Positions 57,604 to 62,670 of a stretch of 64,000 bases of DNA are shown here, piece by piece. Source of the stretch: a virus (Duplodnaviria > Heunggongvirae > Uroviricota > Caudoviricetes); IMG/VR virus record IMGVR_UViG_3300028275_000480, positions 1-64,000 of that record. The stretch is one strand, 5' to 3'. A program made the position numbers and the translations under genes. The notes beneath the pieces were generated by a model that saw only the letters and a list, made by a program, of their open reading frames with translations, ran no database searches and had not been told where the DNA came from. Positions within the stretch are counted from its first letter, which is position 1, and each line of letters opens with the position of its first letter.

Positions 57604-59940
57604 ATGACAATTACGGTAATTAAAAGAAGCGGAAATAAAGAACCATTAGCAGTTGAAAAATGGCAGGCACAGGTAGCGAAAGTTTGTGCAGGTATAGCCG
57701 ATGTTAGTCAGAGTATGATTGAGATTAAAGCTCAACTTCATTTTTACGATAACATCACAACAAAAGAAATTGATGGCATCACACTACGTGCTATTGTTGA
57801 TCTAATCGATGTAGAACAAAATCCAGATGTAGGACATACTAATTATCAATATGTAGCAGGCAAGCAAAGACTTAGCATGTTACGTAAAGATGTATATGGT
57901 TCGTATCAACCTCCCCACCTCTATGAAATCATAAAAAAGAATATAGGAGTTGGATTATACACTCCAGAACTTCTTGAATGGTATAGTAAAGAAGACTGGG
58001 ATAAAATGAATGAAATGATCGATCATTCAAAGGACGAAGAATATTCTTATGCTGCAATTGAGCAATTAATTGAAAAGTATCTAGTACGTAATCGTGCTAC
58101 AAAAGAAATTTACGAAACACCCCAAGTGCGTTACATGGTCGCAGCCGCTACGGTGTTCCACAAAGAAGAGCCTAATACGGCTCGTATGCGATGCATTAAG
58201 GAGTATTATAATGCGGCAAGTGATGGACTTTTTACTCTGGCTACTCCCGTTCTGGCTGGCCTGGGGACTCCTACTAAGCAATTTTCGAGTTGCGTTCTTA
58301 TTCGCAGCGATGACGACCTTGATAGTATTTTTGCGTCGGGAGAAATGATGGCCAAGTATGCTAGCAAACGTGCTGGCATTGGTTTAGAGATTGGACGACT
58401 ACGTCCATTGGGCAGTCCCATCCGCGGTGGTGAGATCATGCACACAGGCATGATACCATTCTTAAAGAAATGGTTTGGTGATTTGCGTTCATGCAGTCAA
58501 GGAGGTATTCGTAATGCTAGTGCGACGGTTTTTTATCCTATTTGGCATCATCAGTTTGATGATCTCATCGTACTTAAGAACAATCAAGGAACTGAGGAGA
58601 CTAGGGTAAGGCACATGGACTATGGTGTGGTCTTATCGGCTTTCTTCTGGAGACGTTTTAAAAATAAAGAAGACATTACTTTCTTTGATCCTAATGAAGT
58701 ACCAGATTTATACGAAGCATTTTACAAAAATACATCTCAATTTGAAGAACTATACGTTAAGTATGAAAAACGTAAAGACCTAAGAAAGAAAACAATGTCG
58801 GCTGAAGAAGTATTCAAAGCTGGCATCCTTAAGGAGCGTACAGATACAGGTCGCATCTATTTGGTGTTTATTGACAATGTTATGAATCAAGGACCATTTG
58901 ATCCTGAGTACCATACCATTTATCAAAGTAACTTGTGCTGTGAGATCTTATTACCAACCCGTCCATTTAAGAGATTAGACGACGAGGAGGGACGCATAGC
59001 GTTATGTACACTGGGATCCATTAACTGGGGTGCGTTCCGTAACCCAGAAGACATGCGTAGAGCATGTCGCATATTACAGCGTAGTCTATGTAATATCTTA
59101 GACTACCAAGACTTCTTGTCAATACAAAGTAAACTGAGCAATGACGAGATTCAGCCATTGGGCATTGGTGTTACTAACCTAGCCTACTGGCATGCCAAGC
59201 GTGGATTGAAGTACGGTGAGAAAGATGCACTAGCAGAGGTAAAGTCATGGATGGAACATCAAGCCTATTATCTAACCGAAGCTACCGTAGAACTTGCTAA
59301 AGAAAGAGGTGCTTGTCAGCATAGCTCACATACCCGATACGGCAAGGGAGAGTTTCCTTGGGAACATAGAGCAAATGGTGTAAATGATTTAACTGATTTC
59401 ACTCCAGAACTTGATTGGGAGTCTCTACGTGCAGAAATGAAACAACACGGTGTTCGAAACGCCACACTAATGGCTATTGCTCCTGTAGAAAGTTCTAGCG
59501 TTGTTATTAACTCAACTAACGGAATTGAAATGCCTATGAGTTTGATTAGCACAAAGGAATCAAAAGCAGGATCATTTACACAAGTTGTACCAGATTATCA
59601 TAAGTTAAAAAACAAATATCAATTAATGTGGGAGCAAACTGATTGTGCCGGATATCTTAAGACTGCTGCTGTGTTGGCTGCTTATGTTGATCAAAGCATT
59701 AGTACTAATACTTTTTATAATCCTGCTCATTTCCCAGACCGCAAGGTACCTACTACATTGATTGCTAAAAATTTAATGCAAGCACACATGTGGGGAATTA
59801 AAACATTCTATTATAGTTTGATTAATAAACAAGGCGCAAAACACGAAGACAAAACTCCAGAAGTTCATTACAATGGATTTCATGAAAGAGAAATAGAACC
59901 CGATTATGAAGATGAAGACTGCGAGGCCTGCAAACTATGA
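57604..59940 (+). CDS. nrdA: ribonucleoside-diphosphate reductase alpha subunit (class I)
   Basis: N-terminal ATP-cone; SNLCCEI active site; C-terminal CEAC tail; 778 aa. Confidence 0.9.
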   Translation: MTITVIKRSGNKEPLAVEKWQAQVAKVCAGIADVSQSMIEIKAQLHFYDNITTKEIDGITLRAIVDLIDVEQNPDVGHTNYQYVAGKQRLSMLRKDVYGSYQPPHLYEIIKKNIGVGLYTPELLEWYSKEDWDKMNEMIDHSKDEEYSYAAIEQLIEKYLVRNRATKEIYETPQVRYMVAAATVFHKEEPNTARMRCIKEYYNAASDGLFTLATPVLAGLGTPTKQFSSCVLIRSDDDLDSIFASGEMMAKYASKRAGIGLEIGRLRPLGSPIRGGEIMHTGMIPFLKKWFGDLRSCSQGGIRNASATVFYPIWHHQFDDLIVLKNNQGTEETRVRHMDYGVVLSAFFWRRFKNKEDITFFDPNEVPDLYEAFYKNTSQFEELYVKYEKRKDLRKKTMSAEEVFKAGILKERTDTGRIYLVFIDNVMNQGPFDPEYHTIYQSNLCCEILLPTRPFKRLDDEEGRIALCTLGSINWGAFRNPEDMRRACRILQRSLCNILDYQDFLSIQSKLSNDEIQPLGIGVTNLAYWHAKRGLKYGEKDALAEVKSWMEHQAYYLTEATVELAKERGACQHSSHTRYGKGEFPWEHRANGVNDLTDFTPELDWESLRAEMKQHGVRNATLMAIAPVESSSVVINSTNGIEMPMSLISTKESKAGSFTQVVPDYHKLKNKYQLMWEQTDCAGYLKTAAVLAAYVDQSISTNTFYNPAHFPDRKVPTTLIAKNLMQAHMWGIKTFYYSLINKQGAKHEDKTPEVHYNGFHEREIEPDYEDEDCEACKL

Positions 59941-60494
59941 CATTTAGTTTTATTCGAAATGTACTCAAAGAAGGTAAAGCTCATAAATTAGAAATTGAAA
60001 GTCTTCCTTACGATTCTAATGAACTAAATCCTGCTATATCAAAAAATACAATCGAATATCACTATGGTAAATTAGCCAAGGCTTATGCTGAAAGATATAA
60101 TGCCGGTGAAGGTGATCCTGACTTTAACGAAGCTGGAGTTTTCCTACATAACATTTTGTTTCAACAATATCAAGAATATAATTCTGCAAATAAACCTACA
60201 GGAAAATCTTTAGAATTCATTGAAGAGCATTTTTCTACATTTGATAAATTTAAAGAAGAATTTTTTAAAATTGCCATGAGCATTCAAGGCAGTGGGTGGG
60301 TATACTTAACTAAATCTGGCGAAATTAAAACAATAAAAAATCACGAAATAAAAAAAGATATTTTAGTTTTAGTCGATTGGTGGGAACATGCGTGGGCATT
60401 AGACTACCAAGCAGACAAGAAAAAATATTTAGAGAACCAATGGAAAATCATTAACTGGGAGAAAATAAATGGCTTACTCAGACAAGGTTATTGA
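59937..60494 (+). CDS. Fe/Mn superoxide dismutase-family protein (compact; all four metal ligands conserved)
   Basis: IEYHYGK...FLHNILF...GSGWVYL...DWWEHAWALDY aligns with E. coli FeSOD as I recall it; ATGA overlap with nrdA. Confidence 0.7.
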   Translation: MTFSFIRNVLKEGKAHKLEIESLPYDSNELNPAISKNTIEYHYGKLAKAYAERYNAGEGDPDFNEAGVFLHNILFQQYQEYNSANKPTGKSLEFIEEHFSTFDKFKEEFFKIAMSIQGSGWVYLTKSGEIKTIKNHEIKKDILVLVDWWEHAWALDYQADKKKYLENQWKIINWEKINGLLRQGY

Positions 60495-60858
60495 TCATTA
60501 CGAAAATCCACGTAACGTTGGTAGCTTTGATAAAGCTGATCCTAGCGTAGGTACAGGCATGGTCGGTGCACCTGCTTGTGGTGACGTAATGAAGCTACAA
60601 ATTAAAGTAGACGAAACCACAGGAATTATACAAGATGCCAAATTTAAAACGTATGGTTGTGGAAGCGCGATTGCGTCGAGTTCGCTCGTTACTGAGTGGC
60701 TCAAAGGCAGAACGCTTGACGAAGCGCAACAGATTAAAAATAGCGAGATTGCTACTGAGCTTGCCCTTCCCCCTGTTAAGATTCATTGTTCAATACTTGC
60801 AGAAGATGCGATCAAAGCGGCCGTAAATGATTACCGTAACCGACACAGCCAAAACTAA
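60469..60858 (+). CDS. iscU: IscU/NifU-type Fe-S cluster scaffold
   Basis: conserved Cys in GAPACGD, YGCGSA and HCS. Confidence 0.85.
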   Translation: MAYSDKVIDHYENPRNVGSFDKADPSVGTGMVGAPACGDVMKLQIKVDETTGIIQDAKFKTYGCGSAIASSSLVTEWLKGRTLDEAQQIKNSEIATELALPPVKIHCSILAEDAIKAAVNDYRNRHSQN

Positions 60859-61153
60859 AATCAAACACCTGCTTAAGAATAGAGGCAAAGGTGTGGGAAT
60901 TCGACTAGCAGTTAAAACTACTGGTTGCAGTGGTTTGGCATATGTGTTAGAATATGTAGACGAGTATGAAGCAGAAGTTGGCGTTACAAATTTTGCTACA
61001 GATGATTTTGTAATATTAGTAGATGCAAAGTCGTTAGTATATCTAGACGGATTAACTATAGACTGGGTAAAAAATGGATTAAATGAAGGGTTTGATTTTG
61101 TCAATCCAAATGAACGTGACCGTTGCGGTTGCGGAGAAAGTTTTAGAGTATAA
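60827..61153 (+). CDS. iscA: IscA/HesB-type Fe-S cluster carrier
   Basis: C-terminal CGCGESF. Confidence 0.75.
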   Translation: MITVTDTAKTKIKHLLKNRGKGVGIRLAVKTTGCSGLAYVLEYVDEYEAEVGVTNFATDDFVILVDAKSLVYLDGLTIDWVKNGLNEGFDFVNPNERDRCGCGESFRV

Positions 61154-61155
61154 TA

Positions 61156-62256: not shown

Positions 62257-62258
62257 TC

Positions 62259-62426
62259 ATGTATAAAGTTTTTTATAAAAAAAGATCGCCATATGAAAAT
62301 TGGCAAGCAGTTGGGACCTATGGTTCAGAGCAATCAGCTATCGCCGCAGCAATGAATAAGAAAAAACAAGGAGCATTGCTAGTGCGTGTAACTGATAAAT
62401 CTGGAAGTGTAGTTTTTACAAATTAA
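62259..62426 (+). CDS. small hypothetical protein (55 aa)
   Basis: not in the track; no clear RBS. Confidence 0.25.
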   Translation: MYKVFYKKRSPYENWQAVGTYGSEQSAIAAAMNKKKQGALLVRVTDKSGSVVFTN

Positions 62427-62439
62427 AAAGGAAGTGTAA

Positions 62440-62670
62440 ATGAAAGCGGTAGTATGGAGCAAATATCATTGCCCTTATTGTGATCAAGCAAAGGCATTGT
62501 TAACACAAAAAGGAATTCAGTTTGAAGAAAGAAAAATTGGAGATGGTTATACAAGGGAAGACTTGTTAGAAGCTGTACCCACAGCTCGAACCGTTCCTCA
62601 AATCTTTTTAGATGAAGAATTAGTTGGTGGTTTCCAAGAATTAAAGAAAAGGTTAGAAAATGTTAATTGA
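62440..62670 (+). CDS. glutaredoxin (NrdC/Grx-like)
   Basis: CPYC active site. Confidence 0.75.
   Translation: MKAVVWSKYHCPYCDQAKALLTQKGIQFEERKIGDGYTREDLLEAVPTARTVPQIFLDEELVGGFQELKKRLENVN

Follow-up and report, generated by a model that had tools for sequence, protein, structure and literature searches.

Canonical operons of class Ia ribonucleotide reductase (RNR) are nrdAB-yfaE in Escherichia coli and nrdA-nrdB-small open reading frame (ORF)-grx in Xanthomonas phage X1 as well as in the Moby-like phages of Stenotrophomonas. Here we analyse a locus (57604-62670, + strand) in positions 1-64,000 of the IMG/VR record IMGVR_UViG_3300028275_000480; this whole stretch of 64,000 nucleotides is termed the window in the following. 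Unlike in the canonical operons, three genes are located between nrdA and nrdB and a YfaE-type ferredoxin gene is lacking. The three genes encode a compact protein of the iron/manganese superoxide dismutase (SOD) family (SodFM), the iron-sulphur (Fe-S) cluster scaffold IscU and the A-type Fe-S carrier IscA. Phage RNR, glutaredoxin, IscU and A-type carriers as well as occasional annotated SOD genes are already known. What appears to be undescribed is an abundant compact SodFM subfamily that is in practice restricted to viruses, its recurrent and translationally coupled pairing with Fe-S carriers, and the fact that a large uncultured phage lineage has it fixed between nrdA and nrdB.

Fe-S auxiliary genes have been described in T4-like marine environmental viral genomes, in which proteobacterial-type IscU and A-type carriers are found alongside grx and clpP (PMC5332604). 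The isc genes of the window resemble these, but they overlap the gene for the SOD-like protein and form a cassette with it inside nrdA..nrdB, whereas the study of the marine viruses does not mention ribonucleotide reductase. By analogy, the locus may also be compared with the class Ib operon nrdHIEF, in which a small superoxide-related redox accessory gene and a glutaredoxin-like reductant likewise accompany the RNR genes. There, however, NrdI makes superoxide for the Mn2 cofactor, whereas the accessory protein of the window would remove superoxide and a NrdI is not encoded. Our searches of the literature retrieved no account of these compact viral SODs, their association with A-type carriers or their position within nrdAB, and no paper reporting a SOD linked to phage isc genes. 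The SodFM survey does not mention phages or viruses at all (PMC10172142).

An earlier note on this DNA had named seven genes; the ORF list places all of them at the stated coordinates on the + strand, and the ORF list and the family scores confirm their identities as well as their order:

57604-59940, + strand: nrdA, class Ia RNR alpha subunit, 778 amino acids (NF006578, Pfam, motifs)
59937-60494, + strand: compact Fe/Mn-SOD-family (SodFM-like) protein, 185 amino acids (Sod_Fe_N and Sod_Fe_C, AlphaFold model)
60469-60858, + strand: iscU, Fe-S cluster scaffold, 129 amino acids (TIGR01999, motifs)
60827-61153, + strand: iscA, A-type Fe-S carrier, 108 amino acids (TIGR00049, three Cys)
61156-62256, + strand: nrdB, class Ia RNR beta subunit of the predicted di-iron/tyrosyl type, 366 amino acids (PF00268, R2 alignment)
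62259-62426, + strand: orf55, conserved small ORF without family match, 55 amino acids (tblastn conservation)
62440-62670, + strand: grx, dithiol glutaredoxin and presumed NrdA reductant, 76 amino acids (PF00462, motifs)

The genes are tightly packed: nrdA overlaps the SOD gene by 4 nucleotides (ATGA), the SOD gene overlaps iscU by 26 and iscU overlaps iscA by 32, and gaps of 2, 2 and 13 nucleotides separate iscA from nrdB, nrdB from orf55 and orf55 from grx. These overlaps and tiny gaps are compatible with the co-transcription that had been proposed, as is a sequence scan in which no terminator-like site was seen within the block on the + strand. However, promoter-like and terminator-like sites were no more frequent than in shuffled sequence, and thus the scans do not delimit the transcription unit. 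The best sigma-70-like match of the region (TTGACT-18-TATAAT, 11/12) is located at 62228-62257, at the end of nrdB and upstream of orf55 and grx. The only matches of an Rfam scan of the window were two tRNAs; neither an intron nor a riboswitch is present within the nrd genes or close to them. Exactly this gene order was assembled independently from several metagenomes deposited at ENA and also in IMG/VR, and is therefore not an assembly artefact. That the arrangement is not part of canonical nrd operons, as stated in the earlier note, is borne out by the nearest cultured relatives, which have the order nrdA-nrdB-small ORF-grx.

Comparison of about 190 related phage contigs showed that the position of the SOD-like gene is very stable in the clade of the window. 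The close set contained 80 relatives with a SOD identity of 71-100% and the divergent set 106 further loci with 40-64% identity; clustering of the SOD sequences at ~67% identity yielded the clusters A, B and D. Cluster A, the clade of the window, contains 81 loci, all of them embedded in RNR genes. nrdA is located upstream of the SOD-like gene, at a distance of at most 1.6 kb, in 79 of 79 informative loci, the start codon of SOD overlaps the nrdA stop codon or lies directly next to it in 65 of 78 loci, and nrdB abuts the SOD gene in 32. The order nrdA-SOD-nrdB-grx was found in 39 of the 80 close relatives, the same order with iscU-iscA 2-4 kb downstream in 16, nrdA-SOD-iscU-nrdB in 8 and the order of the window (nrdA-SOD-iscU-iscA-nrdB) in 4; at a few loci iscA/erpA or iscU-iscA are located ahead of the SOD gene. 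Both iscU and iscA lie inside the nrdA-nrdB interval at ~5 of ~81 clade loci, and neither is found within 2.5 kb of the SOD gene at 58 of 81. The synteny comparison proposed in the earlier note thus gave a divided answer: SOD after nrdA is fixed in the clade, whereas iscU and iscA are variable, and the idea that the latter are integral to the RNR operon is not supported. At one locus with an identical SOD protein (L195:3289-3947), ORFs of 125 and 52 amino acids, and not nrdB, come after iscA, as a further variant of this interval.

Other genes enter the interval as well. A class II aldolase/adducin gene (PF00596, 96 bits, ~206-223 amino acids) is present at L017:6533-7189 and at ~20 other clade loci; it is located between SOD and nrdB, in L078 and L079 between nrdA and SOD, is often trailed by a conserved ORF of 81 amino acids and is not found in the window. 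An HNH-type ORF (19.2 bits, below the Pfam cutoff) is located between nrdA and SOD at L046:5330-6004, which fits the interval being a target of mobile elements. Additional insertions encode a Tim44-like protein (L070) and a tail-collar domain (L047). The space between nrdA and nrdB thus accepts changing cargo, with SOD as its only constant element.

In the divergent loci the SOD-like gene does not adjoin RNR genes, apart from one cluster D locus (L115, see below). Outside cluster A an A-type carrier gene is located downstream of SOD at 51 of 97 loci, at 23 of them within 75 nucleotides, and this downstream carrier is of the ErpA type (NF010147, 157 bits, cutoff 117). Cluster B comprises 49 loci, 44 of which have SOD-ErpA. 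SOD is thus linked to two carrier subtypes in different genomic contexts. The commonest upstream neighbour in the divergent loci is the gene for initiation factor 1 (IF-1; infA, 95 bits, cutoff 61). In the ErpA-linked clade, IF-1 is located directly upstream of SOD at L143:7717-7935 and at 41 other loci, and it is found there also in a contig from a metagenome-assembled genome (MAG; L197:5774-5983), giving a recurring IF-1/SOD/ErpA trio.

Nine loci of cluster D have an overlapping SOD-iscU-iscA cassette, eight of them outside RNR and one, L115, inside nrdA..nrdB. The cassettes of L115 and L144 are 85% identical over 1,178 nucleotides and their SODs are 90% identical, while the L144 cassette adjoins NadE and UvsE-like genes and no RNR gene. 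Compared with the window, L115 has an nrdA with 89% identity but a SOD with 65% identity only. Since the cassettes of L115 and L144 are alike while the L115 nrdA matches that of the window, the SOD-iscU-iscA cassette has been exchanged as a unit between contexts. The earlier note had considered that iscU and iscA might be unrelated insertions. They are indeed mobile insertions, but they move with the SOD gene and overlap it, and so they are not unrelated. The wider and deeper linkage of SOD is that to A-type Fe-S carriers; placement in RNR operons is restricted to one lineage and is very stable there.

The subfamily itself comprises 3,333 clusters at 90% identity in the protein database, with 38 representatives at E <= 1e-30. 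When 185,579 species genomes were searched, identity to the compact SOD exceeded 33% in no more than four contigs, all from MAGs (L196-L199, assigned to Burkholderiaceae, Haliscomenobacter and Methylophilaceae). In two of these, L197 and L198, the genes are arranged as in phages (IF-1/SOD/ErpA or SOD/ErpA), which makes mis-binning of phage DNA probable. In practice, the compact SOD subfamily is restricted to viral contigs. The bins of the four MAG contigs may hint at the host range. Several long homologs (P0123-P0126, P0139 and P0164) have extensions of 80-460 amino acids that match no Pfam family; these follow the SOD domain in P0123-P0126 and precede it in P0164 (631 amino acids, SOD domain 465-629), and are putative fusions or gene-calling run-ons.

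Members of the subfamily are also known from cultured phages, namely from Pseudomonas jumbo phage PA5oct and its relatives (annotated as sodB in Callisto and MIJ3) and from Vibrio phage 2.275.O, with 43% and 36% identity, respectively, to the SOD of the window. In these phages the gene is located near ClpS-like and chaperone genes and not near RNR or isc genes. In the cultured jumbo phages Callisto (L001) and Vibrio phage 2.275.O (L002), SOD is close downstream of a gene for a ClpS-like adaptor, adjacent in Callisto and two genes off in the Vibrio phage, with chaperone, protease or translation genes nearby, which may represent a further recurring gene neighbourhood.

Both Pfam domains are recognised above cutoff in the SOD-like protein of the window, Sod_Fe_C with 81.4 bits and Sod_Fe_N with 36.1 bits, the latter over profile positions 3-40 of 82 only. 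By sequence, the protein is most similar to dimeric enzymes of the SodFM2 type such as E. coli SodB, P. gingivalis SOD and B. fragilis SodFM2. The NCBIfam SodA and SodB equivalogs are both far below cutoff (SodB 84.9 versus 348), so the protein is divergent. In a HMMER alignment to solved SODs, H42, H71, D147 and H151 fall on the four metal ligands. These residues, Y50 (corresponding to Tyr34), the GSGW motif and E150 are invariant in the 38 clade proteins and in 64 distinct locus-derived sequences. The D-x-W-E-H motif is likewise shared with SodFM enzymes. The AlphaFold model (mean predicted local distance difference test score 82.7) has the two-domain fold, and Foldseek gave template modelling (TM) scores of 0.75-0.82 to solved Fe/Mn-SODs. 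The alignment suggested in the earlier note thus agrees with its assignment of the four ligands and of GSGW, no ligand being missing, and the predicted structure agrees with the SOD fold. Two details need correction: the motif read as WEHAY is WEHAW, and the protein is not simply about 10 amino acids shorter than bacterial enzymes. Instead, the loop joining the two N-terminal helices is shortened by ~20-25 amino acids and the loop ahead of the Asp ligand by 8-12, while a conserved N-terminal extension of ~17 amino acids, with M1, F5, E12 and G13 invariant, is absent from cellular SODs. The hairpin deletion is common to the homologs from PA5oct and Vibrio phage 2.275.O. With a dN/dS of ~0.09, compared to 0.05 for nrdB, the gene is under strong purifying selection, at a near-saturated dS of ~1.8.

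The RNR subunits resemble those of the X1 and Moby-like operons, and the assignment to class Ia made in the earlier note holds. NrdA scores 832.8 bits against the class Ia alpha family NF006578 (cutoff 813) and is closest to NrdA of Xanthomonas phage X1 (59% identity), with the Stenotrophomonas Moby-like phages at ~54%. Pfam identified the barrel and the all-alpha domains and, as a weak match, the ATP-cone (23.5 bits, cutoff 25.8); the NLCCE motif, the YY736-737 pair and the C-terminal CEAC773-776 are present. NrdB is 62% identical to that of X1 and matches PF00268 with 145 bits, its NF006576 score of 298.7 bits being under the cutoff of 346. Residues 9-363 align to E. coli R2 (E = 2.6e-73), including all six carboxylate/His metal ligands and the equivalents of W48 and Y356. 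An Asp (in LDSLQG) and Tyr127 (in HSRSY) align to the equivalents of E. coli R2 Asp84 and Tyr122. This Asp/Tyr pairing is the signature of classes Ia and Ib, whereas class Ic has Glu/Phe and class Id Glu/Tyr (PMC8463856). The ORF list and Pfam revealed no NrdI or flavodoxin-like ORF in the operon. Because of the Asp/Tyr pair and the missing NrdI, NrdB is predicted to be a class Ia protein of the O2-activated Asp/Tyr type, with iron as the predicted metal. Cofactor assembly in class Id RNR requires superoxide and is inhibited by SOD (PMC8463856); since NrdB does not belong to this class, a SOD is compatible with the RNR encoded here.

The first metal motif of NrdB, E-T-N-I-H-S-R-S-Y (E119-Y127; window 61510-61536), contains a one-residue insertion in E-x-x-H. 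It is conserved among the clade members and also occurs in Xanthomonas phage X1 (ETNLH); it may define an NrdB subgroup, so far uncharacterised, in which the helix geometry around the di-metal site is changed. The glutaredoxin (PF00462, 53.6 bits) has the motifs CPYC11-14, TVP51 and GG63, and its gene follows nrdB at almost every clade locus, as it does in phage X1. The small orf55 gave no family match in Pfam or NCBIfam. Using tblastn it was found in the equivalent position at many clade loci, with 47-95% identity, and it is not a ferredoxin or zinc finger, since it contains neither Cys nor His.

IscU (TIGR01999, 223.8 bits, cutoff 192.4) has retained C37, D39, C64, H106 and C107 and the motif LPPVK100-104, which in known systems is bound by the chaperone HscA. 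IscA (TIGR00049, 102 bits, cutoff 58.8) contains the three cysteines C34, C100 and C102; its score against the IscA equivalog TIGR02011 (140.3 bits) is just below the cutoff of 150.6, so the assignment to a subtype is approximate. The module had been called self-contained in the earlier note. This does not apply, since IscS (cysteine desulfurase), HscB, HscA and Fdx are missing from the operon and from the scanned ORFs of the 64-kb window, which is the visible part of the genome. A YfaE-like ferredoxin (searched with an approximate query sequence), a second A-type carrier, IF-1 and an aldolase-like gene were likewise not found elsewhere in the window. Three genes of the 2-oxoglutarate (2OG)-Fe(II) oxygenase family are encoded at 17833-18444 (+), 22168-22791 (-) and 28658-29248 (-). 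Together with NrdB, at least four non-heme iron enzymes are thus encoded, and the oxygenases are further possible beneficiaries of a SOD.

In the explanation we favour, to which we assign a probability of roughly 0.5, the cassette is a mobile module for protection and supply of iron cofactors that has been placed in a class Ia RNR operon and depends on IscS, HscBA and ferredoxin of the host. Intact motifs, purifying selection, the stable position behind nrdA, the recurrent proximity to A-type carriers and the mobility of the cassette speak in its favour, and the RNR class is compatible with a SOD. The cassette genes would be co-transcribed and translationally coupled with the RNR genes, and the SOD-like protein would remove superoxide where iron cofactors are made and used. 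Superoxide destroys exposed Fe-S clusters. It is also reported to inactivate E. coli R2, and a SOD was reportedly part of the system that introduces the radical into E. coli R2. Removal of superoxide could therefore shield Fe-S clusters in transit on IscU and IscA as well as the diferric-tyrosyl cofactor of NrdB and its loading with Fe(II). IscU and IscA would add scaffold and carrier capacity while relying on the host for IscS, HscBA and ferredoxin. One of the proteins supplied by them may be the YfaE-type ferredoxin of the host, by which NrdB is maintained. Such an indirect benefit for the RNR is reasonable in view of the IscU-YfaE-RNR Ia dependency (PMC5302844). Grx would recycle NrdA.

Several observations weigh against this iron-cofactor module, as do the changes in the SOD-like protein discussed further below. 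Half of the clade loci contain no isc gene in the fetched flank, thus the RNR does not need these genes in cis. The nrdA-nrdB interval also holds cargo unrelated to iron cofactors, and therefore position alone is weak evidence of function. The homologs of PA5oct-like phages, Vibrio phage 2.275.O and L085 are located away from RNR and isc genes. A search for Fe-S client proteins in the window identified none, only the mononuclear-iron 2OG oxygenases, and none of ten unusually long SOD-like homologs (up to 631 amino acids) contains a fused RNR or Isc domain. The variable cargo, that is Aldolase_II in many loci and the HNH, Tim44-like and tail-collar insertions, would also suit a scenario in which the interval is simply a permissive hotspot and SOD a hitch-hiking general antioxidant gene, vertically inherited and not specifically related to RNR. 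Outside cluster A the SOD-like homologs were all counted as being away from RNR, and a general SOD would protect the three 2OG oxygenases of the window equally well. We regard hitch-hiking as possible but rather unlikely, since SOD is the sole cargo kept in every informative cluster A locus despite a dS of ~1.8, is coupled to nrdA by the ATGA overlap in most loci and stays between nrdA and nrdB even where IscU and IscA are located 2-4 kb downstream. An RNR-dedicated system as envisaged in the earlier note, in which phage IscU and IscA build or maintain the NrdB cofactor directly or via a YfaE-like ferredoxin while SOD shields it, would agree with the seven contiguous and tightly packed genes of the window. 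It could also draw on the dependency of class Ia RNR on IscU via YfaE in E. coli (PMC5302844) and on the IscU-like domains fused to some class II RNRs (bioRxiv 10.1101/2022.04.23.489257). The missing YfaE-like, IscS, HscBA and Fdx genes make it very improbable, however, and so do the rarity of the window's order (~5 of 81 clade loci) and the 58 of 81 loci without an isc gene within 2.5 kb of SOD. The same type of cassette moreover exists away from RNR in L144, and IscU and A-type carriers are already widespread in T4-like phages with no RNR linkage described (PMC5332604). A role of the module dedicated to RNR is at best partly right.

The second coordination sphere of the SOD-like protein is unlike that of every canonical SodFM. 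The HXXXHH motif has become HXXXLA (HYGKLA), with Leu and Ala for His30 and His31 and Leu46 invariant, a one-residue deletion (AGVFLH) has removed the N-terminal Gln, Ile138 occupies the canonical C-terminal Gln/His column, and Tyr163 is replaced by Ala. Metal preference and activity of SodFM enzymes depend on a water-coordinating Gln or His (PMC10172142), and such a residue is absent at both canonical positions. These consistent losses, the truncated alpha-hairpin, the conserved N-terminal extension, the low NCBIfam equivalog scores and the adjacency to A-type carriers that persists across clades would all suit a repurposed SOD fold. The protein would then be a metal-binding partner without dismutase activity, such as an iron donor, chaperone, or docking or shielding factor, for A-type carriers, IscU or NrdB. 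We consider this doubtful, since the four ligands, Tyr34, the Trp of GSGW and the bridging Glu are all invariant and the whole fold, as modelled, superposes on active SODs. In addition, SodFM4 enzymes lack one His of the HXXXHH motif and are yet among those assayed (PMC10172142). The Leu at the His30 position is shared with the PA5oct and Vibrio phage homologs, and so is His136, which is invariant in the clade and located two residues before the canonical column. Judged from its position on the same strand face, His136 could take over water coordination. In a first manual register it had been placed as the C-terminal water-coordinating His itself; this was withdrawn, as Ile138 falls in the canonical column both in a BLASTP comparison with M. 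tuberculosis SodA and in a MAFFT alignment with the enzymes of E. coli. Catalytic competence is plausible but not proven, because the four ligands are kept while the second sphere is altered, and the protein is probably Fe-using or cambialistic.

A more speculative variant would combine several of these features. The compact SOD might be a virus-specific guard or loader of iron cofactors which acts in complex with A-type carriers, IscU or NrdB and not as a bulk cytoplasmic dismutase. Docking, perhaps via the conserved N-terminal helix, would allow it to shield or metallate nascent Fe-S and di-iron centres during assembly. We hold this to be quite unlikely; if true, it would explain why SOD is wedged between and translationally coupled to its partner genes in different lineages, why the cassette travels together and why the second coordination sphere has been remodelled.

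The earlier note had let the module end at grx, but the packed co-directional string of genes runs on:

62660-62956, + strand: orf98, 98 amino acids, conserved in nearly all clade loci and without family match, overlapping grx by 11 nucleotides
62958-63221: PAAR-motif protein, downstream of orf98
63223-63633: DUF454 (YbaN-like) membrane protein, downstream of the PAAR gene

These three genes directly after grx make an odd mix for a nucleotide-metabolism block. Elsewhere, the window encodes a DNA ligase, ClpP (30796-31383), sugar epimerases and the two tRNAs. A virion protein (36374-37717) is 53% identical to its counterpart in cyanophage S-RIM32, followed by other T4-like cyanomyoviruses, indicating that the source is an uncultured myovirus related to T4-like cyanophages. 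Related IMG/VR contigs have lengths of up to 300-372 kb. When the 5-kb region was compared with 50,697 phage records by megablast, no match was obtained; a close cultured relative at the nucleotide level is thus lacking. The first 18 kb of the window contain mostly minus-strand ORFs, including homologs of phrog_1314 ('HNH endonuclease') and of the phrog_1297 ATPase, and the genes for tRNA-Met and tRNA-Arg (14519-14677); the G+C content is ~45-49% in 1-18000 and ~35-42% in 18000-64000.

The in vivo protection and maintenance of the class Ia diferric-tyrosyl cofactor, and the extent to which superoxide limits it, are understood only in part, as is the survival of oxygen-labile clusters in transit on carriers. 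Here, selection has put a predicted superoxide-handling protein beside both RNR and Fe-S carriers, in a small set of proteins that can be cloned. The subfamily would be a natural experiment for SOD enzymology, since the metal ligands have been kept while both usual water-coordinating positions have been lost. The locus thus provides a compact and testable system that may link superoxide handling to the maintenance of di-iron and Fe-S cofactors.

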